A stretch of DNA of 64,000 nucleotides. Origin: Pseudomonadota bacterium (lineage in GTDB: Bacteria; Pseudomonadota; Alphaproteobacteria; Rhizobiales; CAJQND01). The DNA lies in the NCBI GenBank assembly GCA_039030315.1, contig JBCCEL010000001.1:9714-73713 (forward strand), read 5' to 3'. Shown here piece by piece: positions 1,081 to 46,826 of this stretch. Each line of letters opens with the position of its first letter. Within the stretch, counting starts at the first letter, position 1. The notes beneath the pieces were generated by a model. It saw only the letters and a list, made by a program, of their open reading frames with translations, ran no database searches and had not been told where the DNA came from. Position numbers and translations under genes: made by a program.

Positions 1081-1285
1081 GCGATATGGTTGAGATTATA
1101 TTTGTGTATGGAATCAAATATTCTTGAAGATATCTGCGCAACGTCTAATGTAGTTTCAAAAATTCCTTATACGGAAGATTAGAATTTGTAGATTGAATAA
1201 TAAATTTTGATTTCACAAAAATATCTTTTGATGTATGTGTGAATTCATGTGGCTGATTTCGAAATAATGGCAAAGTGAACAAGCA
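1081..1285 (+). promoter_or_regulatory. AT-rich upstream/promoter island of the giant-ORF pair
   Basis: I counted 32 G/C in the 120 nt at 1141..1260 (27%). A spot count at 1861..1920 inside the downstream gene gave 38/60 (63%). The island lies directly 5' of the ATG at 1286. No -35/-10 assignment attempted. Confidence 0.55.
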
Positions 1286-4200
1286 ATGAACATAATGAAT
1301 GCTTTTCGTCTTTGGGGTCATTTTCAAGTTGCCACCGCCTACGATGACGAGGATCCGCAATCCGTTCAGGCCCCTGGCGTAATTGACATCAGTTTTGCCG
1401 AACAGAGTGACGGCACGGTCCGTGCTTTTCTGACATGGCAGAAGGTTGATGTCGGCGTCCCGGCCTTCCCGAGTGAAACGCCTGCGACGGGACATTCCGT
1501 CTTTGGGGATTTTGACGCTGCAGATGCCCTTCTTGCGGCGACCGACAAGGTAAATTTCTGGATCAGCTTGCCGGAAGATGAATCGGAAACGGTAGAACGC
1601 AGAGTTTTCATCCGTGGTGCAATCGCCTTCCAGCAATTCGCGCATCCGGGCATTGGCGTGCCTGAGCTCCTCTGGCCTTGCGTCGCACATGGTCCGGAGC
1701 TCGATCCGTACAATGTGAGCAGCTACGAGGACGATGTGTTGGGCACCTGGCTGGTGCTCGGACAGGGAGCCGGCACGGACTGGAACAGCAATTTCCGGCT
1801 CGATCTCGCGGTTCCCAGTCCGGTTCAGTTCAATCAGGAAGCGGCACCGAGTGGGAGGGGATCGGCCGCGATCGGTGTCAGCGGGGTTTTCGCCAGCAGA
1901 CCTGAGCCTGAGGAAATGGCCAGGCCCGCGCCGTTGCTGACCGGACTGCCGGGCGATTTTGCCACGGCGGCGCGCAACGAGTATTTCGGCACCTTTGTTA
2001 TGGGCGCGCGGGATTCCACGTCCGACGGAATGTTTGCTTATGCGGACAAGGCGACCCTCCTGCCGTCGCTCGCGGCGGGGCTGGAAAGTGCCGGCTTTGC
2101 GGGCGTGCGCAACCGGCCCAGCATTTCTTCGGCATTGATCCGGCCGCACTGGGATGCCGATGAGGGAAGGTTCTCGCTGACTCTCCGCCGGATGGTGGCA
2201 TTTCCTGAAGAATATCTGGATCTCACCGGGCAGACGGGCGGCTTCATGCGGGTGGGTACGGCAGATGCGCTTTGCGAGCTTGAGTACAGCGTTGAGCTCC
2301 AGCCGGACGATCTGGTGGCCCGCCTGAAAGCAGGATTGGCGGCCTTTGAAGGCGACCTTCAACTGAGTTTCCGCTTTGTCACCACGGAGACCGTCAACCT
2401 TTCAGACGGTCTCCGGGACGTCACGAAACTGGACCAGGCAGTTCCCAGGTTCGATGCCGGCGGTCTCTATCAGGCGATCTTCGAGATGAACCGTGTCCGC
2501 GCCGGGCTGTTGCCGGCGAAGAGCGGGCCACAAAGCGTGTTCCCCGACATTCACGAGCATGGCGGCGGTGTCGACCAGGAAACCGCGTTCTGCTGGAAGG
2601 TGCACGGACAGGCGGCTGCGCCATCCCGGCCGGAGATCGTCGACACCGAAGCTCCGAAGAACCTTGGCAACCTGGGCTGGGCGCCGCCACGGGAAGAGAC
2701 CGCGCGCATCACGGTCACGCCTCTTGATGTGCGCTTTGAGGAAGACCTTGTCGCGCGGCTTTACGCCGGCCGGACGCTCATTGAGATAAGGTGCCGGTTC
2801 GAGAACTTCGTCTCTGCGCCGGACCTTGAGCCTCCCCGGAACAAGGTGTTCGTGCTGGCGAGAGATGCGCGTGCCGACCGGCAGCCGGAGGACCGGTCGT
2901 TCGGATTTTTTGCGCTCGAAGAGACGAAAGATGACCGCAACAAGCTCGGTTACTCCGCCCAGTTGGGAGCCTTGAACTTCACCAAGGCATTCACGGAGGA
3001 GGGCCCGAACAGTCCGTTCCTGGTCACGAACGCCGGCGACAATGCCCTGGTCCTCTCGCGCCGTGTCCGGCGGCTGCCGCGTATTGTCGACGGCGTGACC
3101 GATCACGGGCGCCCCCTCATGCCGGCGCTGAATGCCAGGCTCGACCTTAGCCTGGCGATTGATGTGGTGGATCCGGTGACAACGGATATCGCCCATGGTG
3201 ACCGCAGCCGGCAGACGGCTCCTTTGCTGATCCGCGAGCCTGCCCGAGCCGAACGGCTGGCAGCCCGCGAGCCACGGCTCGGACCGATGGCGGTCGGCCC
3301 GATGGCGGAACCGGCGGAACTGGGCAGAACCGAGTTCATCCTCAAGGTTTCTGAGCAGGTGCTCGACGACCAGGACTGGCACCTGCAGGCAACACTGCTG
3401 GAAACCAGCCGGCTGCGCGGAGCGGCGGATGAGCGCTACACCGTGCTGTCGTTCGAGCCGTTCTCACTCTACCGCTTCTCCCGCGAGCCCCTTACGGTCA
3501 GCGGGCAGGAAGATCAGCCGTCCGTTGCGGAGTATGACAGCGACGAACGGAGCTGGCGCTTCAGCCGTCGCTCAGAGGACTATCAGCTAACCCTGCAGCC
3601 TGCTGTGACCGGAGACGCGGCAGACAAGCCGCATCGTCTCGAAATCCACGATCCCGCACCGGCTGCTGGCGACTTTCCCGAGCCTGTGCCGGAGTTTGAG
3701 GGCGTTCCGAGAACCCATGTCGTAGACAGCCGCTTCGCACCACCCGTGAACCTCTGGGTTCGGCCGACGGATCTTACCCGAAATGCCGTTCTACCTGAGT
3801 TTGCCGGATACGATCTGTTCCGGCAGGCCGGTGACTTTGGCCGCGGTGTATCCCTGGCAGGCATGACGGCGGAATTCCTGTATGGTCTGAGCGTCGGCAT
3901 CAATCCCGGACGTGAAACCGGTCCGTCCGCCCAGGCACGTGTTGCTGAATTGGATGTGCTATACGGTCGGCACCGTCGCCGGGCACCAGCAACTCCGGCG
4001 AAGGGAAGCCTGATCCGATGGCTGCGGCTCCAGCACAGTCTGAGAACCCGGCCTGAGCATCTTGAAATCTGGAATTTCGATTCAGAGAGCCAGAACGGAT
4101 TTGTGTCCGCCCGGTTCTCCGAAGGAACATCGTTCGCGCTCCGGCACACGGCCTTTCAGAAGCCGCCGGTTGAGCCGGTTGGGCCGATCCCTTCGAACCC

Positions 4201-7200
4201 GGTGGGTCCGCGGTTCCATGACCGTGGCCTGCCCGGCGGTGCACTCTGGCCTCTGGAATCGTGGAACATCGCCCGCGCGCTGGTCGCAAACCCCACGGCC
4301 GCACCCGGCGGCACAATTGAGCGAATTGCCCTGGCGCCCCACGGCGGCACGGCAGATCAGACAGCGCGCTTCCTGGGCGGGGTGATGACGATCATCTCTG
4401 AGACCCGCAACGGTTTTGTGCAGAAGCAGAGGGTCGAGATTCTCGGGCGGATTTCCGTCTTCTGGCACCGCGCCAAGCATGTCGTCATATACGAGCGCAC
4501 GACCGCGCCTTCGGACCAGTTCGCGCCGGACGAAGGCCATGAGACCCGCACCGAACGTCCTGCACTCCGCAAGGTTGAAGAGTTTGTGGAAATACTGCAG
4601 CCGGTGCGCAGCTACCCCGATTATCCCCGCAATGAGCAGGCGACCGCCGGCTTCCTGGAGGAAGTTCGGTTCAACTCAAAAATCATCCATGTCGACAGCG
4701 CCTGGGGCGGCGACGTCGGAACGACGGGCTGGCGGGTGCCGCTCTGGAACCGCGGGGCTTCGAATGAGCGGCCTTTGGTCTATCCGTTCCCGGACATTGC
4801 GATGGTCACGCTGGGAGAAGGCGATGACGACCGGCCGCGGGTTGTTCAGGAATGCCTCGATCCGGCGAACATCTATTTCTTCACCGATGCCGAGGCGGCG
4901 CAGGAGGGTAATGCGGATACGGACAGCTGGGACAGCCGCGAGGGCCTCGACTACTCGTCGCTCGGCAGTCCGGTCGATATTGATGCCGCTCTGGAAAAGG
5001 TGCTGGCTGGCAGGGATGGTGTGGACAGAGGCCGCCGGCCTTCCTCATCGCGTATCCTGCCGGGCATGCGCCCCTTCACCTGGCGTTTGGCGCCTGCTCC
5101 TGCGCGGACGCAGCTCAACGCAGGCCGCTCCGCCAAGCCGGTATACGGCGGCCTGGAATCGATCACCTTCATGCGCACCGTGTCATTCCTCGTGACGGAT
5201 GACCCTATTGACCCAAAGGCTGTCGATGTCCGGGGGCTAGCCGAGTTCCGTGTCCTTGGCGATTCAGGCAACCTTGCGTCTGTCGGGACAACTCCTCAGC
5301 AACCCCCTGTTGGACGGACGGAGAACCTGCCGGAGGATTCAGACGGAGACTTCGGTGATCTTCTGAATGCGGCCAGGGACTCACTTACAAGCGCGGACCC
5401 GGCCCAGGTCAGAACCGCACTGATGAACCTTGCAAACAGTGGGGCCATTCCCAGTGCAGGTCAGGCAGTGCAGGCCTTTGGCGTGGATCTTGGAAAGCTT
5501 GAAGACCTGCGCGCTGCATTCAGGTCGGGATCGGACGCGCTAAAGAAGTTCCGCGATTTTGATGCAGACACCTGCGACCGCCTGAAGTCGGACGCATCCA
5601 GGCTTATCGAGCGCAAGCGGCTGATTGCGGTGGAAGCCATCCGCACCGCGCAAGGGGCAATGCTTGCCGAGATCGATAAGGTCTCGCTCGACAATCTCCC
5701 GGGCTGGTCCAAGCGTCAGACACGTCATGAGCTGCGGGAGCTTCTGACCGAATTGGTCAGGGCGGAACTCGACCCGCATTTTGCCAGGGCCAGGGTCAAT
5801 GTCGGTAACCTGCAGGATAGTGTCGAGGTCGCCCGGGCGATCGTCCGGGACTGGCGCCAGGATGCGGCCGCCGGTCTGGCGCGGGCCCGCGCCAGGGTAG
5901 ATGCCGTCGAGGCGGGCTTCGATAACGCTAAGCCATGGTCCATCAACCGCATCGAGATGCTGCGTCAGCAGGTGCTCGAACAGGTTGATGCCGCCCGTGC
6001 CGAAGTGCTGGCGACCCTGGACGAAGCGCGCCAGCGGCTTGCCGGCGAGATTGAGGGGCTGGCCTCGCGGCTCTCATCGAAGGTGTCGCGCGCGCTGGCC
6101 TTTGCGCTCGGACAGGCGATCGATGCGGAACTCCTGCTCACAGAGGTAGCAGCGCAATTGCAGGGCACGGCCACACAGGTGCGGGCCGTGATCGACAAGG
6201 TCAGGAATGCGACCGATCAGGGGAAACTGGCGCTGCATCTCCTCTCGGTTCAAAACAACACGGACCTGCCGCAAACCGTCAGAGACCTCGCAAAAGATCT
6301 CGAAGCGCTCCGTCTCAAGGTTGTGCGGGGTGCAACAGACCTCTCGCAGGATGTCGGGCAGCTCAACAGGCTGGCTCAGGGTGCAATCACGGTTGGCAAG
6401 GGTGAACTCGTCGCCGGACGCGCCCGTGCCCAGTCTCTCCATGACGACAGTCAACAGTTCATTGAAGACACTGCCGAACTGTCGGCGGCGCTTGTGGCGG
6501 CAGGGGAGGCGGCCCTGGCCCAGGATGTCGAAGACGCCGCGGCCTTCATCAATGCCACAGTCAACGACCTGACGGACGATTTGATCAGCGCGGTGTCGGG
6601 GATCGACTTCCAGATGGAAGAGGCCTGGCGCTGGATCGATCGCGCGCTCAGCGAGCTGGAGGCGGTCAGCACTCAGGGCTTCGACGCCGTCGAGGAGTAC
6701 CAGTCCTATTTCGCATCCATGCTGCAGGTCACGCAAGGCGCGCTGTCCGGCGGCATCCAGTCAGCCGTCGAACGGCGCATCATCGCGCCTGTCGTGGACC
6801 GGGTGCTCGGTCCCTTCCCGGAGAGGTTCTACCTGTCGGAAACGCCGGCCGCCGATGACGTGGAGGTTTTCAAGACTGAGCTTCGCATCACAGTTGGCGA
6901 GCTCGGAGACAGGGCTCAGACAATTGTTCAGGACGCAAACGCTCTTGTTACGGGCGGTCTGGAGGAGATCGATCAGCTTTGCCGCGATCTTGCCGGCGCC
7001 AAGCTGCTCCTTGGCAATACCATCCAGGACGCCTATGATCAGGCGGTGACGGCCGCGCGTGATGCACTCAGCGGCCTTGCCGGCGATCTGCCCGGTGACT
7101 GGAGGGACGTCGATCCGGCCGCAATTGCCCAGGCGATCGAAGCGTTCGACTATCAGGTTCGGGATGTCATCAACGCGGTGGGCGACAGCACCGAGCTGGC

Positions 7201-8698
7201 GCGCGACTACTCCGACCGCATCATCAATGCCGCCGGCAGCATCGGCAAGCGCGGCATAGCGGCCGGCCCGAACAACGTTCTGCGGCTTTACTCGGCGGTT
7301 TCGCAGGCGCCGGAGCTTGCGGCCCTCAAGGTCAACATGGACCGCATCAGGGTCAGCATCAGAGAAGCCGACCGCATTCTTCAAACCCCTGCTCTCAGAG
7401 CCGGTTTCGACAAGCTCGGCGATGCCCTGAAGGCGCTGGGCATCGAGATACCGTTCAGTGAGCTCGGAGACACGCTCAAGATTGATGCGGATGAACTGGC
7501 CGGTTTCGATATCGGGCGCTGTTTTGGCAACTTCGGCGGCCTCAATCTGTCTGACCTGTTCTCCGGTCTGAAGATGGACAGGGGCTGGGCAGACTACATC
7601 GACATCACCCACCAGTTCGACAAGAAGGCTGTGCGGGCCTGGGTACAGATTGATGTCGATGTGCCCATCGGGGGACGCAGGACACTCTTCAGCATCGGGC
7701 CCTTCACTCTGTTTCTGCGCAACGCCCGCTTTTCCGGATTTGTCCGGGTGGAGGCGAGCAAGGATACCGAGCAGGTCACCCAATCCGATTTCGCCGTGAT
7801 CCGGACGGATCTGGAAGCCGTGGTTGCCGGTCAGGTCATGGTGACGTTGCAGGACGTGCGCATCGAGTACACCAAGGACGGCGGCCTCGACTTCAAGTTC
7901 GATCCCAAGAACATCAAGATCAATGAGGTCTTCCGCTTCATTCAGGACACGTTGGGAACCCTCTTCCCCGGCGAGTTCGGCGGGCTGAGGTTCGTCAAGC
8001 AGGCGGGCATTCCGGTCGGCATCGAGCACGAGTTCAAGATGCCTCCTGTCTCGCTCAACTTCGGCACGAGCGGCGTCTCGAACCTGGCGATCTCGAACCG
8101 CTTCTCCCTGGTAGCCTATCCCGACTTCGTGATCGCCAACCGGTTCAACCTGAGCAGGGTCGAGCAGCCATTCATCTTCTCGATCTTTATCATTGGCGGG
8201 GCCGGGTACATCCAGGTCGATACCGAATACCGCCCCTTCGACAAGCGCCTGATGGTTGTCGTGGAGGCCAGTGCCGGCGGGTCCGCGGCTCTTGCGTTCT
8301 CGTTCGGGCCGGTTTCCGGCGGCGTGTATATAACCCTCAGCGTTGCCCTCACCTACCGCAAGCTGATTGGCCAGGGACCGTCAGGAGGCGGCCTATCTGT
8401 CTCCCTCGTACTGGTCATCGCAGGCAATGTAAGCCTCTGGGGCATGGTGCATGTGTTCCTCAGCCTCGTCTTGCGGATGACCTACCATTCGAACGGCCAG
8501 ATTGACGCGCTGGGTTCGCTTTCGGTCGAGGTGAGGATCTCCCGCTTCTTCAAACTGAAGTTCTCCACGACCGTTCGCTACAAGCTCAGGGACGGACAGA
8601 GCAGAACGCAAGTGTCCTCCAACACCCAGGTTGGGGGCGAGGCGGCTGAAATCGCGAAGAAGGCCGGGCAACTGAACAAGGCGAGGAAACGGCTGTGA
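1286..8698 (+). CDS. giant protein 1 (2470 aa), unknown function: mixed N-terminal region, long Ala/Leu/Asp/Glu-rich helical rod, C-terminal Gly-rich hydrophobic membrane-type module
   Basis: Uninterrupted 7.4 kb ORF. No N-terminal signal peptide (MNIMNAFRLWGHFQVATAYDDED). I could find no P-loop, HExxH, RHS/YD or RTX repeats. Hydrophobic stretches near the C-terminus are PFIFSIFIIGGAGYIQV, GGSAALAFSFGPVSGGVYITLSVALTY and LSVSLVLVIAGNVSLWGMVHVFLSLVL, followed by a basic tail. Confidence 0.85.
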   Translation: MNIMNAFRLWGHFQVATAYDDEDPQSVQAPGVIDISFAEQSDGTVRAFLTWQKVDVGVPAFPSETPATGHSVFGDFDAADALLAATDKVNFWISLPEDESETVERRVFIRGAIAFQQFAHPGIGVPELLWPCVAHGPELDPYNVSSYEDDVLGTWLVLGQGAGTDWNSNFRLDLAVPSPVQFNQEAAPSGRGSAAIGVSGVFASRPEPEEMARPAPLLTGLPGDFATAARNEYFGTFVMGARDSTSDGMFAYADKATLLPSLAAGLESAGFAGVRNRPSISSALIRPHWDADEGRFSLTLRRMVAFPEEYLDLTGQTGGFMRVGTADALCELEYSVELQPDDLVARLKAGLAAFEGDLQLSFRFVTTETVNLSDGLRDVTKLDQAVPRFDAGGLYQAIFEMNRVRAGLLPAKSGPQSVFPDIHEHGGGVDQETAFCWKVHGQAAAPSRPEIVDTEAPKNLGNLGWAPPREETARITVTPLDVRFEEDLVARLYAGRTLIEIRCRFENFVSAPDLEPPRNKVFVLARDARADRQPEDRSFGFFALEETKDDRNKLGYSAQLGALNFTKAFTEEGPNSPFLVTNAGDNALVLSRRVRRLPRIVDGVTDHGRPLMPALNARLDLSLAIDVVDPVTTDIAHGDRSRQTAPLLIREPARAERLAAREPRLGPMAVGPMAEPAELGRTEFILKVSEQVLDDQDWHLQATLLETSRLRGAADERYTVLSFEPFSLYRFSREPLTVSGQEDQPSVAEYDSDERSWRFSRRSEDYQLTLQPAVTGDAADKPHRLEIHDPAPAAGDFPEPVPEFEGVPRTHVVDSRFAPPVNLWVRPTDLTRNAVLPEFAGYDLFRQAGDFGRGVSLAGMTAEFLYGLSVGINPGRETGPSAQARVAELDVLYGRHRRRAPATPAKGSLIRWLRLQHSLRTRPEHLEIWNFDSESQNGFVSARFSEGTSFALRHTAFQKPPVEPVGPIPSNPVGPRFHDRGLPGGALWPLESWNIARALVANPTAAPGGTIERIALAPHGGTADQTARFLGGVMTIISETRNGFVQKQRVEILGRISVFWHRAKHVVIYERTTAPSDQFAPDEGHETRTERPALRKVEEFVEILQPVRSYPDYPRNEQATAGFLEEVRFNSKIIHVDSAWGGDVGTTGWRVPLWNRGASNERPLVYPFPDIAMVTLGEGDDDRPRVVQECLDPANIYFFTDAEAAQEGNADTDSWDSREGLDYSSLGSPVDIDAALEKVLAGRDGVDRGRRPSSSRILPGMRPFTWRLAPAPARTQLNAGRSAKPVYGGLESITFMRTVSFLVTDDPIDPKAVDVRGLAEFRVLGDSGNLASVGTTPQQPPVGRTENLPEDSDGDFGDLLNAARDSLTSADPAQVRTALMNLANSGAIPSAGQAVQAFGVDLGKLEDLRAAFRSGSDALKKFRDFDADTCDRLKSDASRLIERKRLIAVEAIRTAQGAMLAEIDKVSLDNLPGWSKRQTRHELRELLTELVRAELDPHFARARVNVGNLQDSVEVARAIVRDWRQDAAAGLARARARVDAVEAGFDNAKPWSINRIEMLRQQVLEQVDAARAEVLATLDEARQRLAGEIEGLASRLSSKVSRALAFALGQAIDAELLLTEVAAQLQGTATQVRAVIDKVRNATDQGKLALHLLSVQNNTDLPQTVRDLAKDLEALRLKVVRGATDLSQDVGQLNRLAQGAITVGKGELVAGRARAQSLHDDSQQFIEDTAELSAALVAAGEAALAQDVEDAAAFINATVNDLTDDLISAVSGIDFQMEEAWRWIDRALSELEAVSTQGFDAVEEYQSYFASMLQVTQGALSGGIQSAVERRIIAPVVDRVLGPFPERFYLSETPAADDVEVFKTELRITVGELGDRAQTIVQDANALVTGGLEEIDQLCRDLAGAKLLLGNTIQDAYDQAVTAARDALSGLAGDLPGDWRDVDPAAIAQAIEAFDYQVRDVINAVGDSTELARDYSDRIINAAGSIGKRGIAAGPNNVLRLYSAVSQAPELAALKVNMDRIRVSIREADRILQTPALRAGFDKLGDALKALGIEIPFSELGDTLKIDADELAGFDIGRCFGNFGGLNLSDLFSGLKMDRGWADYIDITHQFDKKAVRAWVQIDVDVPIGGRRTLFSIGPFTLFLRNARFSGFVRVEASKDTEQVTQSDFAVIRTDLEAVVAGQVMVTLQDVRIEYTKDGGLDFKFDPKNIKINEVFRFIQDTLGTLFPGEFGGLRFVKQAGIPVGIEHEFKMPPVSLNFGTSGVSNLAISNRFSLVAYPDFVIANRFNLSRVEQPFIFSIFIIGGAGYIQVDTEYRPFDKRLMVVVEASAGGSAALAFSFGPVSGGVYITLSVALTYRKLIGQGPSGGGLSVSLVLVIAGNVSLWGMVHVFLSLVLRMTYHSNGQIDALGSLSVEVRISRFFKLKFSTTVRYKLRDGQSRTQVSSNTQVGGEAAEIAKKAGQLNKARKRL

Positions 8699-11600
8699 AG
8701 ATCTTCATCCATACCAACACGAGTGCAGAGCCGGGCGCCTTCCACGGCGATGAGAACAAGATCTTCTATGCCGTGCACTTGGCGGCCGAGGTGTGCCGCG
8801 ATGCAGCGACCGACACCGAAGCAGATGCCAAGGAAGTCTTTGCCGATTTTCTGGGGAAGGCGCCAACCTTCAAGTATGCGCTGGTGCCTGATATCGGCCT
8901 GGGGGTCGCTGAGGCGGTCGACGTGGAGGCAACCGCCGGCAGCCTTGGCGGGTTGATGGATTGGCTGGAGCAAAGGGACCCGAACGCGGCAGGTGCGTCC
9001 GACCCGGAACCATACTATCTGACCCCAACCGCCGAGCCGGCCGTCACGGATACGTTCGATGCTGCAACCGTGGGTGCGGCCCAGCTACTCCGGTCGACCC
9101 TGAACTGGATCGGCCCCGTGCCCGAGCGGCTCGGGCTGACACGGCTGATTGCGCAAGACAGTGCGCCCAGCGCGCAGGCCGCAATCATTCCCTATCTCGG
9201 CGCCACGCCGCCGGCCTCTGTCGTTACCGACGGCAGCACGATCACCTATGACCTGGCCGGGACGCTAGGAGGCATCAGCGAGGTCAGTGTCGTGTTCGAG
9301 GAGCTCGGTGATTACACGGCACCATCTTCGATTGTTCTCCCGGACGGGTCCGTCGAGGCGGTTCCTGCGGACCCGGAGTTCCGCCGCACTCTCAACCGGA
9401 TCGACGCGGAAAGTGCAGGCAGGCTCTGGACCGTTCCGCACATGCTGGAGCCTTACGACGACGTCGACTGGTCGTCGCTGGACGCACGGAAGTGGCTGGC
9501 GGACGCAGGCCTGAAATCTGCCTTCGATCCATTGTTCTGGTCGCTCGCCATGCCGGCGACACTTGCAACCGGGGAGTTGGCGCCTCGGGGACAGATCATG
9601 CTGCCCTTCATAGCCTTCCTGGCCGGTGCGAACGAAAGGTTCGGCCACGCCGCCGGCGTCGATGCGGATCAGGCCTGGAGCACGTGGAGGCCTCGTCTCC
9701 GGACGGTCCTGTCCTCGCTGAGCTTCGCGGATCTGGTCGGCCTGTTGAGGGATGTCGAAGCGGTGGACCCGGAAACGCTGGGTGTCCTGGAGGACGCCGA
9801 GGCCGGAGAGGTGCCGGACGACGGAAAGACCGCGGATGAACGCGTGGCGCAGCTCCGCGAGACTCTCAACGCGGCGGTTGTCGCGCTCCAGGAGGAGGCA
9901 GCGGTCGAAGCAGTTATTGTCGCGCTTCTGAGGAAAGTGGCCGACAGCTCGGCTCTGGAGCCAACTGCCGAGCGGCCGGCATTCGATGCGGCGATGAGGG
10001 CGTTTGGCGAGTTTCTCGAGGAGGGGTTCAACGGTGCGGATGCGGTGCGCCGCTCAGTCGGCAGCATCATCTCGCGCGAGCTGGTGCTGAAGGCGTCGCG
10101 GGACCTGGACGCGCTGAACGAGTCTCTGGCCGAAGCTGACCTGTTTGCGCGGCGTCTGCTGGGAAGAACAGGTACACCGCAGGATCTTGATCAATTACTG
10201 GATGCGTTGCCGGACAGCTTTGCAGGTGTAGCACCGGCCACCCTTCGCGCGCGGCTTCAGGAGCGCTACCGGGAAGTCGCGACGATGCTGTCGTCCCCGC
10301 CGGCGGCGGAAATGCGATTCGTGCCGGACACCAGCCCGCAGCCCCTGGCCATCAGGATCCTTCCGGGCATGGACGTCGCGGAGCTCACGGAAATCTCGTC
10401 GGCCCTTCAGGGGTTTGGCGTTGTGATCAACAGCAAGATCCGGGGGGACGAGGACGCGGGCCACGGCAACCTGGTGAGAGTGAACCCTGGAAGCTCGACA
10501 ATTCCCACCGCCGTGCAGCCACTGATCCCCGGGCTTAGCGATGGCCGTCCGGTCCTGTTCGCCGAATACAATGGCAGACCTCTTGCCGGTGCCAGCCAGA
10601 CCGGCATCGGCGGCCGCGATGCGATCGAGGATGCCGAGCAGCGCGCGGCGCGGGAATTGGCCTCCAGAGTCTACTACAATCTCGATGAGGCCGAGGAAGA
10701 AGATCTGCTCCCGGCCGATCTCGCCTATGGCGCGCAGTATGCGGCAAAGGCATTCTGGACCCCCAATTCCGGACGCCTTCCCGCAGGGTTGCGTGATGGG
10801 ACAGACCCTTCCAAGCCAGTGAAGCCTGCCGGCGATTTCAAGCCCCAAATCCCGGATGGCGCAGCCTACTACCTGCGCCGCACCGCGATTTCGGAAACCG
10901 GCCTGTCGGAAGTCGATGCCCGCAAGAGAATTAGTGTGGTGCCGGCCGACGTCTTCCCGCTTGCCTCCGACTATCCGCGGATTGCCAAGAGTGCACCGGC
11001 CGAGGCCACCGGCTATATTGATGTCTTCAGGAACGGCGATGGAACCGGCGCTCTGCCGGATGGGACAGCAAGCATAGTGCTCGTTGATGCGCTGGTTGTC
11101 GGTGCCGGGGCTGAGGTTCAGCTGCGCCGCTGCTGGGACCCGACCGGAGCCGACGAGGGGATCGAATTCGCAGCGACGCTGGCCGGGAACGGCAGCGATG
11201 AGACCCTTCAAGTGCCGGCAGACAGCGATGCCCGCCCGTTCTGGGTTCGCGTTGTCCTGACGGCCGGAAGCGGGGAGGGGGCCACCCTCAGTTTCGCCGA
11301 CCCGTCCGACGACGCGGAACTTGAGGGCAAACCGGCCACGGCTCCGATTCTGTTGCTGGCGCAGGGCGACGAATGGCAATCCGAAATCGCCCGCGAAAAT
11401 GTGCTTGAGCTTTCCGTGCCCCGTGTATCCTTTGCCGATTTCGAACGCTGGGCCGCAAACAGGGAGCTGTTCGTTCATTCAACCGGCAACACAGATGACC
11501 GGTTGCCGCAAGTCTTGCTCGTCGCATCCATGATGCGGCATCTCTCTGAAACTATTGACGAACTCATTGAGCAATTGCCCGATCCAGCGGTCTCCGCCCT

Positions 11601-14577
11601 GCATCTGGGTCTGCAGGTGACAGATGCGTTCGACGGGTTCCATGCAGAACCGAAGTTCTTCGATCTCCCCGTTGCGCCCTATGCCGGATTTGATCTGGAC
11701 GCCATTGCCACAGCGCTTGACGAACTGGAACGGGCCGGTGCGATGGATCAGCCAGCAAAGGCCAGGGTCCTGATGGATCTTCTGGAAGATCTCTTGCGGG
11801 AACTGGACCGGAAGGCGCGGCCGCGCCTGACCGCCGAAGTCGGTGGTCTGCAGCTGGATGCCCGGCGCGTAGGGGTTCCGGCTGGCAAGGTTGTACATTT
11901 GTCTGCCCAGCCTGTCGTCGCCGAGACCTACTTTGACAATGGCCACGATTTCTATTGCATGGAGCCGCGTCTGACAGAGATTGCAGCGGGCAGGCTGGAA
12001 GACGCCTGGCTCTTCCCGGGCGTCGCGCTGCAGATCGAAGCCATGCAATTGCCCGAACTTGGGCTCCCGGCTGAAGACTGGTGGCGGGACGCCAGGATCG
12101 CTCCTCTCGGTCGGACAAGGGAATACGGTCTGGACCTCGATCTCACGGACTATGCCAGCAGACCCTTCAGTGATCCCGCCTTCAATTTCTGGCGCCAGTT
12201 CGCACAGGCCGACGTCGCGACTCAGCGCTGGCGCCCGACCGGCCGGCCGATCTACCACTGGATAAGGCCGGTCTCGGCAGTCGGCGGGATCGAGCATGTT
12301 TCCGGCCCCGTCGTCGATCTCAGCCACCTGGTCGCCGATCCTTCGCAGAAATCCTTGTTGTTCGAGTTTGAGAGTGACGCGTTTGACCGGGACGTGGATG
12401 AATCGGACATAGTGCGGGTGCGGCTTGATCCGGTGGACCGGATCACCCGGCTCAACACATTCAGCTGGGAGCAGCACTCCGCTACGGCGCGGCGCCACCG
12501 GATCGATCTGCGGACCCGTTACTGGGGCGGGCTCAGAAATCCTTCTGCTCGGCCCATGGTGGCCCCGCCGTCCGAGCCGCCCAGGGCCGACGATGATCTC
12601 TGGACGAACCGTGCAGCCATACTGGCGGATCTCAGCGTGCTTGAGCTGACCCGCCCCCAGGTCAGGGCGCTTCTGCCTCTGACCCGCCGCGTGGGTGACG
12701 CTGGATCCGCGCTGCCGATCGCCTGCCTGCTGGCGGAGAAGCCGTTTGACCAGGCCGGGCTGGCCGACCGGATCGCAGCCGAGATCGACACGGTGGAGAA
12801 GTTCAGGTTCTACGACCTCGACAGCACGGCCGGTGACCGCCGCCTCGGACTGGAAACGCTCCGCAAGGAAGTCGGACCTGACCCCCGGCTGAGCTACTAC
12901 GGCATCGGAGACCAGCCATCCCGGAAGTTCTCCTTGATGTGCGAAGGGCCCGTCGGGCTGCACTTCGAAGCAGTCGATGCGGCCGCGCCGGCCTTCACCA
13001 ATTCCCAGTACCTGCTGCATATGCGGGCCAGTGGAGACGACGTGCCAGGTATGGATGAGAGCTTTGCCGGCATCTCGCTGCGCCGCTATGTGGATCCGGA
13101 CTGGTCCTGGTCTCCTTACACTGCCGCGCCGGAAAGCCTGCCGGATGTCTGGTGGCAGGACCTGCTGACCGACGAGATGTTCACCGATTTCCTGGTGACC
13201 TACGAGAATCCGCAAAGCGGGCAAACCGTTTCCGCAGTCTCCGTTGCACCATCCGCCGATGGTCAGGAGTTCGTCTTCCGCTTGGCGACAGAGGCAATCT
13301 ATCCAACGCCCGGCGAACTGGATGGCGCGCCGTCATCCGTTGAACTCTGTCGTGTGGCGGTTGGACAGCCGGCAAGCGTTCTCTTCCAGAAGCTTGATGC
13401 CAGCAGATATGCATTCTCGGTCTTCGTGCCCGGTCCTTCCCCGACCCAGACCGCGGTGGAGGTCGACGGGGCGTCCGGGTTGCCGATCCTCCTCGCAAGC
13501 ATGGACTGGACCGCAATGGGCCCGGTGACCGTGAGCGGTGAGGTCAGCATGAAGCGTGCGATCACCGCTTCGGCCGCTACGTTCGTGGAGTGGGCCCGCT
13601 CCGGGCGGGATTTCCAGAAGTTCGTTGCTACGCCCCTCCAAGAGGACGCGGAAGGATCAACTGTCCAGCAGCGGGACATTGAAGCAGTCTGGGACAGGAC
13701 AGAGCGCCGGATTGCACTGCGCTCGGCCGTTTTCGACGACGCGGAGATCCGGCTTTCGAGCCTGACCGGGCAGGAACCCTATCCTCTTCATGTCCAGCGT
13801 CACCTGGCAATCCTGCTGACGAAGGCGTCGCCTGCGCTCGGCCGGGAAGTACCCCTGTTCGACCGGATCCTGCTGAGTGACGGGGCCGGTATCCCCCTGG
13901 CAGGTGATGATCCTGATCCCGGGGCAACTCTGCGGCTGGTGGAGTACGAAACCAGGGCCGAGGTTCTCACCAGCGATCGGTCCCATACGGTCGAGTACTT
14001 CCACCGGGCCTACTTTGATCTGGTGTCGATCGGTGCAGACACCAGATTGCAAAGCGGTGACGGGTTCCGTTTCCATCTGCGCCTCACGAACGGATCAATG
14101 CCGAAGGATATCGCGCCGGTCCTGCACATGAGCGGTGCAGGTGCTCCCGAGGGCGAAACGCCCATTGCCCTGTCCGCCAGGACTCCTGACGAGCTGCAGG
14201 CGCTCACCGTGGAGCTTGTGCTGTCCGATGCGGCCGACACCTGGAACTGGCGGGCAACCGGGCGAACGAAGAACGGCCCTGTGGAGCTCGATGGAGGCAC
14301 CGTGGACCTGCCGTTTCTGGCAGCCGGTGAAGACGGCGTGTGGCTCCGGTTGGAGGCGCCGGGCCCGGGCCTCTGGGCCGACGTCTCCATGCTGTTCTCC
14401 CGCGCGAAGGCAGAAGAGCAGCGGGACGCCGCTTTCGATTTCGACTGGCTGTTCACCGCCGACACCCTGCCGCGCAAGGCCACCGAGGCTGTCATGCCTG
14501 AGAACCTGGTCCACATGTCGGAGGCTCAGGCAAAGATAATCGCCGTCTCCGACCCCATCGTGGTGCAGACGCGCTGA
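8695..14577 (+). CDS. giant protein 2 (1960 aa), unknown function, translationally coupled to giant protein 1
   Basis: GTG start overlaps the upstream TGA (GTGA at 8695..8698). A GAGGAA Shine-Dalgarno sits 6 nt upstream. 5.9 kb uninterrupted ORF. No TM segments, signal peptide or nucleotide-binding motif recognised by eye. Confidence 0.85.
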   Translation: MKIFIHTNTSAEPGAFHGDENKIFYAVHLAAEVCRDAATDTEADAKEVFADFLGKAPTFKYALVPDIGLGVAEAVDVEATAGSLGGLMDWLEQRDPNAAGASDPEPYYLTPTAEPAVTDTFDAATVGAAQLLRSTLNWIGPVPERLGLTRLIAQDSAPSAQAAIIPYLGATPPASVVTDGSTITYDLAGTLGGISEVSVVFEELGDYTAPSSIVLPDGSVEAVPADPEFRRTLNRIDAESAGRLWTVPHMLEPYDDVDWSSLDARKWLADAGLKSAFDPLFWSLAMPATLATGELAPRGQIMLPFIAFLAGANERFGHAAGVDADQAWSTWRPRLRTVLSSLSFADLVGLLRDVEAVDPETLGVLEDAEAGEVPDDGKTADERVAQLRETLNAAVVALQEEAAVEAVIVALLRKVADSSALEPTAERPAFDAAMRAFGEFLEEGFNGADAVRRSVGSIISRELVLKASRDLDALNESLAEADLFARRLLGRTGTPQDLDQLLDALPDSFAGVAPATLRARLQERYREVATMLSSPPAAEMRFVPDTSPQPLAIRILPGMDVAELTEISSALQGFGVVINSKIRGDEDAGHGNLVRVNPGSSTIPTAVQPLIPGLSDGRPVLFAEYNGRPLAGASQTGIGGRDAIEDAEQRAARELASRVYYNLDEAEEEDLLPADLAYGAQYAAKAFWTPNSGRLPAGLRDGTDPSKPVKPAGDFKPQIPDGAAYYLRRTAISETGLSEVDARKRISVVPADVFPLASDYPRIAKSAPAEATGYIDVFRNGDGTGALPDGTASIVLVDALVVGAGAEVQLRRCWDPTGADEGIEFAATLAGNGSDETLQVPADSDARPFWVRVVLTAGSGEGATLSFADPSDDAELEGKPATAPILLLAQGDEWQSEIARENVLELSVPRVSFADFERWAANRELFVHSTGNTDDRLPQVLLVASMMRHLSETIDELIEQLPDPAVSALHLGLQVTDAFDGFHAEPKFFDLPVAPYAGFDLDAIATALDELERAGAMDQPAKARVLMDLLEDLLRELDRKARPRLTAEVGGLQLDARRVGVPAGKVVHLSAQPVVAETYFDNGHDFYCMEPRLTEIAAGRLEDAWLFPGVALQIEAMQLPELGLPAEDWWRDARIAPLGRTREYGLDLDLTDYASRPFSDPAFNFWRQFAQADVATQRWRPTGRPIYHWIRPVSAVGGIEHVSGPVVDLSHLVADPSQKSLLFEFESDAFDRDVDESDIVRVRLDPVDRITRLNTFSWEQHSATARRHRIDLRTRYWGGLRNPSARPMVAPPSEPPRADDDLWTNRAAILADLSVLELTRPQVRALLPLTRRVGDAGSALPIACLLAEKPFDQAGLADRIAAEIDTVEKFRFYDLDSTAGDRRLGLETLRKEVGPDPRLSYYGIGDQPSRKFSLMCEGPVGLHFEAVDAAAPAFTNSQYLLHMRASGDDVPGMDESFAGISLRRYVDPDWSWSPYTAAPESLPDVWWQDLLTDEMFTDFLVTYENPQSGQTVSAVSVAPSADGQEFVFRLATEAIYPTPGELDGAPSSVELCRVAVGQPASVLFQKLDASRYAFSVFVPGPSPTQTAVEVDGASGLPILLASMDWTAMGPVTVSGEVSMKRAITASAATFVEWARSGRDFQKFVATPLQEDAEGSTVQQRDIEAVWDRTERRIALRSAVFDDAEIRLSSLTGQEPYPLHVQRHLAILLTKASPALGREVPLFDRILLSDGAGIPLAGDDPDPGATLRLVEYETRAEVLTSDRSHTVEYFHRAYFDLVSIGADTRLQSGDGFRFHLRLTNGSMPKDIAPVLHMSGAGAPEGETPIALSARTPDELQALTVELVLSDAADTWNWRATGRTKNGPVELDGGTVDLPFLAAGEDGVWLRLEAPGPGLWADVSMLFSRAKAEEQRDAAFDFDWLFTADTLPRKATEAVMPENLVHMSEAQAKIIAVSDPIVVQTR

Positions 14578-14612: not shown

Positions 14613-15800
14613 CTAGAGGCCCAAGGCGCTGGCGATCATGTTCCAGGTCTCCATCTGATACGAATACCCGTCCTGGTCGGGGGTGTAGTAACGGTAGTCG
14701 TAGATGAACACCCCGCCGAACTGCGCACGTCCCGACGCGTCTTTGCCGTAGTGCTGAACGAGATCGTTGACGGCGTCCAGCACAAGGGTTCCGCTCGTGC
14801 AGTTGTCTGTCTGGACCGTGCCCGGCTTGGTGCAACAGTTCTGCTGCGCCGTCGCATCACGGGGCTGGATCCAAAGCCGGAAATCCGGATCACAGATGCA
14901 GGGTGAGAAGCCGGCGAGGCAGAAGTAAGCCGGTTCGGCGATGCCGGAATTGGGGATTGCCGCGGTTGCGCTGACGGCCGTGATGTACTGCTGCAGCACG
15001 GCGCTCGCGCTCCCCTGTTCGCCGCCGGAGTAGTACTGGATGTTCAGCCAACTGATTGAGTTTTGCCGCTCTCCCGCCCCGTTCTCGATCACCGTGTGTC
15101 CAACCAGCGGTGTCGTTTGCGGGGCGCTCTGCTCGGGGCACAGATAGTAGGCGAGCATTGTTTCGAAGCCGGAGCTGCAGTCGAGGTAGCCGTACGGAGC
15201 GTGGGAGACGAGGCGGCCCTCCTTTCCAAACGTGTTGGAGAGTTCGATGAGAACATTCGGATATGTGCTCCACTGCGATTCCATGTCCAGATCAAGGCCG
15301 GTGAGATGGAACGGCGTGAGCACCTGCGCGTCGAAGGCCTCGTAGAAGCCTTCCGTGGTCCAGTTGTTCTGGATGTACGCAAGATCGGCGTCATGCTGCA
15401 TCGAAGCAACAAGGTTCTTCCCGGAAGCGGCGATCTTCTGGAGGTACTCGCCCACATTGGGTAGCAGGCCCCACTTCTGGTCCGGGTGTTTCCAGTCCGG
15501 CGGAGTCGTCATTGGGCTCACGGGAACACCGTTCCAGGTAATCACCGGAGTGTCATGCTGGTACCAGGGAGAGCTCGTGTCGGTGTTTGCAAGTCCGAAG
15601 TAGCCCATGATGAGGTCTGTGAACGGCGCATCGACGAGCATGTCGGTGGTGATTTCGATGGCCTGCTTGACGGCTGTCTGCGTAAGCAGTTCGCTCCCCT
15701 CCCAGGTGTGATTTGCTGTGTTCGCAAGGTTGTACTGTGGCGCGTAGTAGTTCAGGCCAAACGGAGCCGTTACGTAGATTGCAAAGCGAACATTACCCAT
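14613..15800 (-). CDS. glycoside hydrolase family 18-like (chitinase/endo-beta-N-acetylglucosaminidase-like) protein without a signal peptide
   Basis: LTGLDLDMES matches the GH18 catalytic DxDxE signature (nt 15279..15293). The N-terminus starts directly in a beta-strand-like VRFAIYVTAPF. GGAGG lies 9 nt upstream of the ATG at 15800. The C-terminal part is Cys-rich (FCLAGFSPCICD...NCCTKPGTVQTDNCTSG). Confidence 0.7.
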   Translation of the reverse strand: MGNVRFAIYVTAPFGLNYYAPQYNLANTANHTWEGSELLTQTAVKQAIEITTDMLVDAPFTDLIMGYFGLANTDTSSPWYQHDTPVITWNGVPVSPMTTPPDWKHPDQKWGLLPNVGEYLQKIAASGKNLVASMQHDADLAYIQNNWTTEGFYEAFDAQVLTPFHLTGLDLDMESQWSTYPNVLIELSNTFGKEGRLVSHAPYGYLDCSSGFETMLAYYLCPEQSAPQTTPLVGHTVIENGAGERQNSISWLNIQYYSGGEQGSASAVLQQYITAVSATAAIPNSGIAEPAYFCLAGFSPCICDPDFRLWIQPRDATAQQNCCTKPGTVQTDNCTSGTLVLDAVNDLVQHYGKDASGRAQFGGVFIYDYRYYTPDQDGYSYQMETWNMIASALGL

Positions 15801-16275: not shown

Positions 16276-17466
16276 ATGAGCTTTGTTGGCGGTGACTATA
16301 TTCACGATGTCTTCATCAGTTACAGCCACGGCACGCTGAATGACGGGGTCCCGGGTCCTCTCAAGGACTGGTCCGATGCGTTTGCCGAGGAACTTCGCAC
16401 CCGGATCCATCAGATCTTTCTGTTTCGGAACGTGTCAGTCTTCTTTGATAGCTCAGAACGCCCGGCAGAGAGCGTTGATCGCAGTAGGAAACTAACCGGC
16501 CAAATTCAGAAGCATGTCCGTGGGTCAGCCATCCTGGTCAGTCTCATGACGCCGCACTATTCGGACTCTGATTGGTGCGGCGAGGAGCGGAACTGGTGGA
16601 TTGAAGAAGGCGAGACCCGGACCCTGGACATGGACGGAAGGATCATCGTCTGCAAGGTCATGCCGAACGTGACGGAGGCGGGATGGAGCCTTACCAGAGA
16701 GCACGAGTCCTGGCCGGAGTGTTTCAAGGACGAGAACGGACATGGGCACGTCGGCTTCAGCTTCTACTCTCAGTCCGGCGTGACCGCAGGCACAGTCCCC
16801 TACAAGTGGCTTGGATCAAGCAACGGCCTGGACGAATTTGATGCTGAAATGCGCATGCTCGTGTCCAGCATTACCAACCGGCTCACCGAGATAAAGGCCG
16901 AACTGGACCAACGTGCCCGATGTACGGACCCCGCCGGCGGAGGGGAGAGGGAGCAGATCAGCGTCCGCATCGCAGAGCCGGATTTTGGTGAAGAGTCGAT
17001 CGATGTAATCTATCTGCACGCGCGAAAGCCGCAGGCGGCGTGGTGGAACTCTGTGCGTGACACGCTGATCGACAAGGGGCGGATCATAGTACCTGATGAG
17101 TTGTCGCTGAACGAAATCGGCGCGAGGGAGCAAAAGCGACCGGCAGGAAGGAACGAAGAGCAGGTTGCCGAACGCATAGAGGCGAGAAACGAGCTCCTCT
17201 GCGAGTGCGATGCCATCGTGATCCTGGGCACGGAAAAGAATGATCTCCTGCGCAAAGATCTTCTCAGTATCGGGTTGCGTGCCTGGAGAAAGGCATGCGG
17301 ATTCCAGCGCAAGGTCCTGCCGCGGGCACTGTTGAGCAAGATCGGGGAACCGGTTCCGTTGGCCAGGAATCTCAAGATTCCGGAATGCAACGGCCGCAAT
17401 GCGGCCTGGCCTCGACAACTGGCCGAAGAGTTCAGGCGCACTGCCGCACGCGATGCTGAGCCATGA
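16276..17466 (+). CDS. TIR-domain protein (N-terminal TIR, about 240-aa uncharacterised C-terminal region)
   Basis: DVFISYSHGT at the N-terminus, VFFDSSE, and ILVSLMTPHYSDSDWCGEE (the SxWCxxE-type region holding the usual catalytic Glu, nt 16573..16587). AT-rich upstream region. The stop overlaps the next start (ATGA at 17463..17466). Confidence 0.8.
   Translation: MSFVGGDYIHDVFISYSHGTLNDGVPGPLKDWSDAFAEELRTRIHQIFLFRNVSVFFDSSERPAESVDRSRKLTGQIQKHVRGSAILVSLMTPHYSDSDWCGEERNWWIEEGETRTLDMDGRIIVCKVMPNVTEAGWSLTREHESWPECFKDENGHGHVGFSFYSQSGVTAGTVPYKWLGSSNGLDEFDAEMRMLVSSITNRLTEIKAELDQRARCTDPAGGGEREQISVRIAEPDFGEESIDVIYLHARKPQAAWWNSVRDTLIDKGRIIVPDELSLNEIGAREQKRPAGRNEEQVAERIEARNELLCECDAIVILGTEKNDLLRKDLLSIGLRAWRKACGFQRKVLPRALLSKIGEPVPLARNLKIPECNGRNAAWPRQLAEEFRRTAARDAEP

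Positions 17467-46750: not shown

Positions 46751-46826
<76 letters not shown>

Follow-up and report, generated by a model that had tools for sequence, protein, structure and literature searches.

Two giant open reading frames (ORFs), ORF1 and ORF2, lie near the left end of a 64,000-nucleotide (nt) stretch of DNA from a Pseudomonadota bacterium (Rhizobiales; CAJQND01; assembly GCA_039030315.1, contig JBCCEL010000001.1, positions 9,714-73,713 of the forward strand), hereafter the window. We found that they form an autonomous, horizontally spread, fast-evolving, and patchily distributed two-gene cassette. Our preferred but tentative reading, which we hold at less than even confidence, is that the pair encodes a toxin or competition complex that has two components, lacks signal peptides, and inserts into membranes, and which would be an analogue but not a homologue of the Tc (ABC) toxins. 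This reading is supported by the strict conservation of gene order and spacing across about 50 loci; by the C-terminal module of ORF1, which is the most conserved part, has barrel-like structural neighbours, and carries one hydrophobic face per strand; by an amphipathic, apolipoprotein-like spacer and the lack of a signal peptide or N-terminal transmembrane (TM) segment; and by the cysteine-poor composition of both families, the cell-wall enzymes among the neighbours, and a mobile cassette that evolves fast at its N-terminus.

ORF1 (1286..8698, plus strand) begins with ATG and encodes 2,470 amino acids (aa), including the membrane-type C-terminal module. ORF2 (8695..14577, plus strand) begins with GTG and encodes 1,960 aa, the apparently obligate partner subunit. 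Their coupling junction (8683..8698, plus strand) reads ...GAGGAaacggctGTGA: a GAGGA Shine-Dalgarno sequence (8683-8687) lies 7 nt before the ORF2 start (GTG, 8695-8697), which runs into the ORF1 stop codon (TGA, 8696-8698), so that the genes share 4 nt (GTGA). An earlier note, made from the letters of this DNA alone, had described two back-to-back giant ORFs joined by a GTGA overlap with a good Shine-Dalgarno sequence, and coordinates, lengths, strand, and junction sequence all agree with it; the pair is a translationally coupled operon. The AT-rich intergenic segment upstream (1081..1285, plus strand) presumably holds the promoter of ORF1, and GC content is 40% over the 320 nt that precede the ATG versus about 63% inside genes. 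No motif was found that this region shares with the DNA upstream of the pair in 30 other loci. ORF1 and ORF2 are not paralogues of each other (hhalign probability <3%).

An exhaustive HMMER search with the C-terminal 570 aa of ORF1 as query returned 831 clusters (at 50% identity) that carry the module, 569 of them with E < 1e-30. Almost always, the module sits at the extreme C-terminus of a protein of 2,000-2,570 aa, and the family splits into a close group and a more distant group of 2,000-2,250 aa. Word-indexed homologue searches had recovered only the query itself and one relative per protein, even with a 19-sequence profile of ORF2; this result was misleading, as long queries that contain low-complexity sequence seem to saturate the 8,000-candidate list of the method. 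When one genome was scanned for each GTDB species, 37 loci emerged. The alphaproteobacterial hosts are Ruegeria, Roseobacter, Sulfitobacter, Rhizobium, Mesorhizobium, Pararhizobium, Hoeflea, Nitrobacter, Methylosinus, Bosea, Sphingopyxis, and Roseomonas, and beyond this class, we found Variovorax, Pseudomonas alkylphenolica, and one metagenome-assembled genome (MAG) each of Planctomycetota and Selenomonadaceae. Alphaproteobacteria are thus the main hosts, and every identified host is diderm.

The two genes travel together. In about 30 intact loci of the GTDB scan, ORF1 (2,250-2,700 aa) is followed by ORF2 (1,885-2,260 aa), and in each of the 30 intact loci measured, the two are spaced by -8 to +10 nt (-4 in nine). 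The same pair occurs in metagenomes, on a plasmid, and in other assemblies, which brings the total to about 50 loci. A metagenome scan with the ORF1 C-terminus returned at least one locus. Even in the distant subgroup (about 26% identity), the partner remains colinearly homologous to ORF2 (E 1.2e-9). As about 50 independent loci contain homologues at 25-38% identity with order and spacing unchanged, chance ORFs are excluded. Frameshifts or truncations affect a few copies. The copy in the window branches deeply, with at most 38% (ORF1) and 31% (ORF2) identity to any GTDB representative; its closest relative is the metagenomic P0005, with 70% identity in the C-terminal module. The family is present on only six rhizobial megaplasmids or chromids. 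ORF2 is 100% identical in a Roseobacter MAG (L005) and a Hyphomonadaceae MAG (L006), which belong to different families and stem from the same study; this identity reflects either a very recent transfer or a binning artefact.

Neither protein could be placed in a characterized family. ORF1 has no match in NCBIfam, PADLOC, PHROGs, or PDB sequences, and in Pfam only a sub-threshold Apolipoprotein match (aa 1555-1688); ORF2 has no match in any of the five libraries. Screening 19 diverse members of the ORF1 family against Pfam returned only compositional Apolipoprotein and Baculo_PEP_C matches in the helical spacer, and 19 ORF2-family members had no matches in Pfam or PDB. Across Pfam, NCBIfam, PADLOC, and PHROGs, queries with single sequences and with family sets yielded nothing beyond these compositional matches. 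The PDB profile search with ORF1 listed helical bundles, apolipoproteins, a tape measure protein, and a ZorA tail, all within the Ala/Leu-rich aa 1436-1930, and those with ORF2 and with the ORF1 C-terminal module returned nothing. A motif scan of ORF1 and ORF2 revealed no Walker A, HExxH, phospholipase D HxK, RTX, DEAD, or DxDxE motif, and the lone YD-like string is kept in only 2 of 33 relatives; neither N-terminus is signal-peptide-like. These results uphold what the earlier note had reported missing, as well as its impression that the pair, despite its size, matches neither Tc toxins nor Druantia, for which single sequences and the 19-member sets were searched alike. Its statement that no motif can be assigned holds for family matches, but it overlooked the hydrophobic, Gly-rich, and highly conserved C-terminal module of ORF1. 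Publicly, family members are named "hypothetical protein" or "apolipoprotein A1/A4/E domain-containing protein", and we found no description of the pair in the literature. As none of the curated libraries, solved structures, and publications searched describes either protein or the pair, and the core of ORF1 has no detectable structural relative, we place the pair outside all known kinds of system.

Family conservation, composition, hydrophobic periodicity, and two AlphaFold2 models delimit four parts in ORF1. The N-terminal region (aa 1-599; 1286..3082, plus strand) has beta-type periodicity and evolves fast: identity within the family is 11-26%, compared to 40-66% in the core, and the regional values are 21% and 51%, respectively. 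It opens with a conserved 13-residue motif, M...AFRLxGxF, in which G11 and F13 are invariant. The conserved core (aa 600-1310; 3083..5215, plus strand) contains many invariant Arg, Glu, and Trp residues, and its conservation peaks at 66% identity. AlphaFold2 predicted a beta-rich structure (predicted local distance difference test (pLDDT) 75.3, predicted TM-score (pTM) 0.76), for which Foldseek identified no match in the PDB (best E 0.22) and no viral match in BFVD (best E 0.015, TM-score 0.07).

The core is followed by a variable, Ala/Leu-rich spacer (aa 1311-1949; 5216..7132, plus strand), which composition and alpha-type periodicity mark as an amphipathic alpha-helical region of low conservation. 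Its matches to apolipoproteins, helical bundles, tape measure proteins, and the ZorA tail are compositional. Two cysteines, Cys1430 and Cys1899 (window positions 5573-5575 and 6980-6982), are invariant and bracket this poorly conserved spacer in a protein with only eight cysteines; they could form a disulfide staple or a metal site. Cysteine makes up 0.43% and 0.57% of the residues in the two families, compared to 0.96% in the other proteins of the window, and ORF1 and ORF2 are both acidic. In ORF2, periodicity predicts beta structure for aa 1-200, alpha structure for about aa 200-550, and mostly beta structure for about aa 800-1960. Conservation of the ORF2 family is even at about 27% and peaks at aa 1300-1450, and the C-terminus is conserved rather than hypervariable.

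The family-defining C-terminal module of ORF1 (aa 1950-2470; 7133..8695, plus strand), which we delimited by conservation, HMMER, AlphaFold2, and direct coupling analysis (DCA), reaches 72% identity and is the most conserved part of the protein. In the model, a stalk of four long helices leads into about 20 antiparallel strands, each 13-21 residues long, and the chain ends in a basic helix. Confidence is higher in the beta part (aa 2105-2450; 7598..8635, plus strand; pLDDT 70-87) than overall (pLDDT 69, pTM 0.47). Foldseek neighbours of the module are solely outer-membrane barrels, including PelB (9h80_M, E 3.8e-5), porins, LptD, and the autotransporter barrel of Hbp (3aeh). Since the TM-scores of these matches are just 0.2-0.3, the likeness suggested by the model is one of architecture and not of homology. 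Family-averaged hydropathy alternates strongly in nearly all strands, with one face at a mean Kyte-Doolittle value of +2 to +3 and the other polar or small. Mean-field DCA (172 sequences, effective number 142) recovered the hairpins S2-S3-S4-S5 and S15 through S21 (z 2.8-7.0), as well as cross-sheet contacts between S10 and S16 and between S2 and S19. Because the hydropathy alternation and the DCA hairpins independently back the predicted strands, the module is best described as a large amphipathic beta-sheet of the membrane or lipid type. Such a sheet may close into a barrel, form a groove, or represent a pre-pore.

The flanks of the pair are unrelated to one another across the other loci and are frequently mobile. 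For example, the pair lies beside integrases, recombinases, and a small terminase in locus L001; Tra genes, ParB, and DUF736 in L049; Tn3, IS21, and Mu transposases in L051; and an integrase fragment and a Druantia-like helicase in L047. In L042, it resides on a conjugative megaplasmid with IS110 and SIR2 nearby. The pair is thus cargo of mobile or accessory DNA, which includes a conjugative element, a megaplasmid, and clusters of integrases and transposases. Many other flanks are plain housekeeping DNA, with genes for serine hydroxymethyltransferase, aminotransferases, and MarR.

These surroundings bear on the possibility that the pair is a structural or ejection part of a phage, a phage-like particle, or a conjugation machine, e.g., a giant that resembles a tape measure or an internal virion protein. 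The terminase neighbour in L001 and the Tra genes in L049 fit this idea, as do the profile match of the spacer to a phage tail tape measure protein (9g8s_w, E 6.5e-9) and one IMG/VR contig that carries the pair. However, this is the only one of 2.9 million IMG/VR contigs that does so, the tape measure match is limited to the low-complexity helical region, where it stands alongside apolipoproteins and designed bundles and is thus compositional, and neither a PHROG match nor a BFVD fold match of the core was found. No capsid, tail, or portal genes surround the pair in about 50 loci. We rejected a phage origin, as tblastn found the pair in none of 50,697 phage genomes, and consider a structural role of this kind very improbable and close to refuted.

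Mobility and fast evolution are also what an immune system would show. The pair could be an anti-phage or anti-plasmid abortive-infection system, in which the N-terminus and core of ORF1 together with ORF2 would sense infection as a giant cytoplasmic complex and the C-terminal module, once set free or turned round, would depolarize the cell's own inner membrane; we consider this unlikely. The lack of signal peptides is expected of a cytoplasmic sensor, and the patchy distribution as mobile-element cargo is in line with such a role. Some neighbours point the same way: in the window, a TIR plus nSTAND1-WD40 module is found 1.7 kb from the pair and a KAP NTPase block is also close by, the closest relative of the pair is located directly downstream of a Druantia DruE-like DEAD/Helicase_C/YjiV_N giant, and other copies adjoin SIR2 (L042), Patatin, and Patatin-WD40 (L043) genes or Septu (about two loci). 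Protease neighbours (subtilase-like, trypsin, C70) recall pore formers that are activated by proteases, e.g., bacterial gasdermins. Yet such neighbours are only occasional. Among the immediate neighbours of the pair in 33 other loci, about 2 of 121 match a defence model, which is about background, and the many housekeeping flanks also speak against this reading. Only in the window do TIR/STAND and KAP modules accompany the pair, so the argument that the earlier note had drawn from adjacent defence modules does not carry over to the family. Furthermore, PADLOC returned zero matches for both proteins, neither an NTPase nor a nuclease nor another common sensor or effector domain was recognized, dedicated peptidoglycan peptidase or transpeptidase partners would be unusual for a defence system, and we found no such system described in the literature.

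The neighbours that do recur are enzymes and binding proteins of the cell wall, together with a subtilase-like and a DUF3238-like protein, all of which are optional accessories. Five loci encode, adjacent to the pair and on the same strand, a peptidoglycan peptidase of the Hedgehog-N (HhN; PF01085)/M15 type with intact zinc ligands and catalytic Glu (L004, 3104-4075; L005, 3108-4085; L038, 3093-4070; L001, 22994-24298; L014, 18371-19165). Most of these proteins have N-terminal TM segments. At the corresponding position, L033 and L035 encode related membrane proteins that lack the HhN domain. The published account of bacterial Hedgehog-N proteins gives no genomic context for them (PMC6027127). 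Similarly, YkuD-like proteins of 300-370 aa occur in five loci (L047, 23674-24621; L052, 12518-13624; L040, 18893-19798; upstream of the pair in L012 and L039), DUF3238-like proteins of about 200 aa in four (L045, 25119-25718; L003, 9934-10524; L027, 3526-4131; L041, 3208-3795), and subtilase-like proteins of 720-770 aa in three (L052, 14041-16191; L016, 666-2984; L031, 652-2964). PG_binding_1 proteins account for four hits beside the pair, a polysaccharide deacetylase was found in one locus, and genes for a lipase, a patatin, and a trypsin-nuclease were each seen in a single locus. No separate holin or spanin was identified beside the pair, and no homologues of the HhN, YkuD-like, DUF3238-like, or subtilase-like proteins were found in the window.

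Cell-wall neighbours would also suit a resident cell-envelope apparatus, i.e., a membrane-anchored or bridging giant, shaped as a barrel or a lipid-groove "taco", for lipid or hydrophobic cargo, vesicles, or surface architecture. We regard this as distinctly improbable and assign a similarly low likelihood to its corollary that local cell-wall remodelling enzymes make room for the structure. An amphipathic beta-sheet combined with long amphipathic helices is the make-up of giants that bind or transfer lipids, and the Foldseek list for the module comprises LptD, TamA, BamA, PelB, and porins, with faint matches to MTP and apoB. Strands of up to 20 residues with a continuous hydrophobic face exceed what a bilayer needs, and DCA shows cross-sheet contacts rather than the closure of a simple barrel. 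The peptidoglycan peptidase, L,D-transpeptidase-like, peptidoglycan-binding, and deacetylase genes beside the pair and the exclusively diderm hosts agree with an envelope function. However, the proteins possess neither a Sec signal, a lipobox, and an N-terminal anchor nor a C-terminal beta-signal, and ORF1 ends in a basic helix instead. None of 19 members has an AsmA, TamB/DUF490, LptD, or autotransporter match in Pfam, and a sporadic, mobile, fast-evolving, and sometimes frameshifted cassette is unlike housekeeping envelope machinery.

The earlier note had left the choice between a giant toxin or envelope apparatus and a large defence or competition factor, and these two alternatives are still the leading readings, although the support it took from neighbouring defence modules and the GH18-like gene does not hold up. 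We prefer the two-component toxin or competition complex, in which ORF1 and ORF2 would be subunits of one large assembly that is synthesized in the cytoplasm, carries no signal peptides, and targets a lipid membrane. Of the two, ORF1 would engage the membrane: its first 600 aa, which evolve fast, may determine target specificity, the conserved beta-rich core may serve as a platform for ORF2, and the approximately 640-aa helical spacer together with the C-terminal beta-sheet module may bind a bilayer and insert into it as a pore or lesion. Translational coupling would supply ORF2 in fixed proportion as partner, cargo, or chaperone. The complex would most likely be active outside the producer, where it would act as a toxin or competition factor. 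Where they are present, the HhN/M15 peptidase and the YkuD-like, peptidoglycan-binding, and subtilase-like proteins may aid its release or activation. Such release might be lysis-like or assisted by peptidoglycan hydrolases and resemble the type-10 (holin/endolysin) export of giant toxins without signal peptides, and there is precedent for giant signal-less toxins that are released by dedicated peptidoglycan-hydrolase cassettes (PMC10847048, PMC10847046).

Several observations weigh against this proposal. No toxin, enzyme, or receptor-binding domain was recognized in the 4,430 residues of the pair, a hypervariable toxic tip is lacking, and across the loci, no conserved small immunity-like ORF was found beside it. 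Cell-wall enzymes accompany only about a quarter of the loci and are absent from the window. The model of the C-terminal module is of modest confidence and its Foldseek TM-scores are low, and DCA did not detect the contacts of S1/S2 with S21/S22 that would close a barrel. Finally, the low cysteine content is weak evidence.

In the window itself, the left 30 kb are accessory DNA that comprises the pair, an orphan gene of 395 aa, the TIR and nSTAND1-WD40 genes, and a KAP NTPase/GAF-ATPase block, whereas the right two-thirds are housekeeping DNA with genes for PhaC, an HlyD/ABC exporter, AraC, and transketolase. The 395-aa ORF (14613..15800, minus strand) is convergent with ORF2 and contains the string LTGLDLDMES, which resembles part of the DxDxE motif of GH18 enzymes and was probably the source of the GH18-like call in the earlier note. 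We rejected this identity: the protein has no match in Pfam, NCBIfam, PHROGs, or PDB, the full motif DxxDxDxE is absent from all six frames, and only LDLDME of it is present. No homologue of the ORF was found beside other copies of the pair, and when the co-occurrence of the two giants with a GH18 gene, which the earlier note had proposed to check, was followed across about 50 loci, the two remained paired but GH18 was not among the recurring partners.

Further right, a TIR_2 protein of 396 aa (16276..17466, plus strand) overlaps by 4 nt with the gene of an nSTAND1 NTPase plus WD40 protein of 1,301 aa (17463..21368, plus strand), and together (16276-21368) they resemble a two-gene NLR/Avs-like immune module. 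Four genes with overlapping junctions follow on the minus strand (21652..29726), which encode a HATPase_c/HTH_58 protein (548 aa), a GAF plus HATPase_c protein (925 aa), a protein of 411 aa that weakly matches Response_reg and HEPN_Swt1, and an NTPase of the KAP family (812 aa). The block is a candidate defence operon. A tRNA-Lys(CTT) gene (46751-46826, minus strand) lies about 32 kb from the pair, and nothing indicates that it delimits an island around the pair.

Each copy of the cassette amounts to about 4,500 codons that are kept intact and paired across hundreds of lineages. Because it is so costly and so mobile, it very likely mediates conflict or host interaction. Carriers include well-studied symbionts and marine bacteria, such as Rhizobium leguminosarum, Sinorhizobium sojae, Mesorhizobium, Ruegeria, Sulfitobacter, Pseudomonas, and Variovorax, and several of them are cultured strains, which makes the question directly testable. 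Culturable carriers include Sulfitobacter delicatus DSM 16477, Hoeflea alexandrii, Rhizobium leguminosarum SiuDiyapA, Sinorhizobium sojae CCBAU 05684, Pseudomonas alkylphenolica xwS2, and Variovorax ginsengisoli CGMCC 1.12090. Neither protein is named in any database, and no structural relative of the best-modelled domain has been solved. If the pair is a membrane-attacking toxin or an immune system, it would be a new kind of machine for either field, and it could be of relevance to plant-microbe and alga-microbe ecology. It is conceivable, if doubtful, that the cassette is the founding example of an unrecognized class of two-component giant membrane-attacking machines. Equally doubtful is the corresponding picture in which ORF1 (about 270 kDa) inserts an amphipathic beta-sheet into a target membrane or its own and ORF2 (about 210 kDa) is the obligate partner. 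With the same reservation, members of this class might have folds without solved relatives, spread horizontally among rhizobia, roseobacters, and other diderms, and be serviced by Hedgehog-N peptidases, which would then provide the first functional context for the enigmatic bacterial Hedgehog-like proteins. In any case, the recurrent HhN/M15 linkage offers a testable context for the relatives that the animal Hedgehog signalling domain has in bacteria. Moreover, a word-indexed homology search can overlook a family of more than 800 clusters, and its apparent orphans need rechecking.

Compared to known systems, the pair shares features with several but matches none. Like Druantia, Zorya, and bacterial gasdermins, it has an accessory or mobile location, evolves fast, and occasionally neighbours defence and protease genes; like the first two, it is large, and the ZorA tail gives a weak helical match to ORF1. 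Unlike them, it lacks helicase, MotA-like, and gasdermin domains and has no PADLOC match, and with regard to Druantia, neither a DruE-type model match nor DEAD or Walker motifs were found. The AsmA/DUF490 domain and N-terminal membrane anchor of AsmA/TamB-like proteins are absent from ORF1 (Pfam, 19 members). The succession of an approximately 640-aa amphipathic helical region and long amphipathic beta-strands recalls apolipoproteins and the apoB/MTP giants, but the helical matches are compositional, and the fold matches to MTP and apoB are insignificant (probability ≤0.1).

Similarly, the C-terminal module resembles outer-membrane barrels as an up-and-down meander of long amphipathic strands, and it resembles autotransporters in that a barrel-type module ends a very large protein. 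Closure of the first strand on the last, as in barrels, was not detected by covariation, which reveals contacts across the sheet. In contrast to type V autotransporters, ORF1 lacks a Sec signal peptide, a Pfam barrel family, and a terminal aromatic beta-signal, in place of which it has a Lys/Arg-rich helix.

A parallel in overall design is offered by the Tc toxins, which consist of TcA (about 2,500 aa) and TcB-TcC (about 2,500 aa). Judged from sequence, every defining Tc feature tested is missing from the pair: searches of Pfam and PDB found neither VRP1, neuraminidase-like, and TcB-binding domains in ORF1 and 18 relatives nor SpvB and RHS/YD repeats in ORF2 and 18 relatives. The TcA channel is alpha-helical, whereas the putative membrane module of ORF1 is a beta-sheet, and the toxic C-terminus of TcB-TcC is hypervariable, whereas that of ORF2 is conserved. 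The type-10 cassette of holin, endolysin, and spanin likewise differs from an HhN/M15 peptidase that is fused to TM segments and absent from most loci of the pair. The pair and the Tc toxins are both accessory or mobile and have occasional dedicated peptidoglycan-hydrolase genes nearby, as known for Tc toxins and type-10 release (PMC10847048), and both comprise two giant signal-less subunits of similar sizes that are encoded back to back, one of which bears a membrane-penetrating device in the Tc toxins and, as we propose, in the pair.

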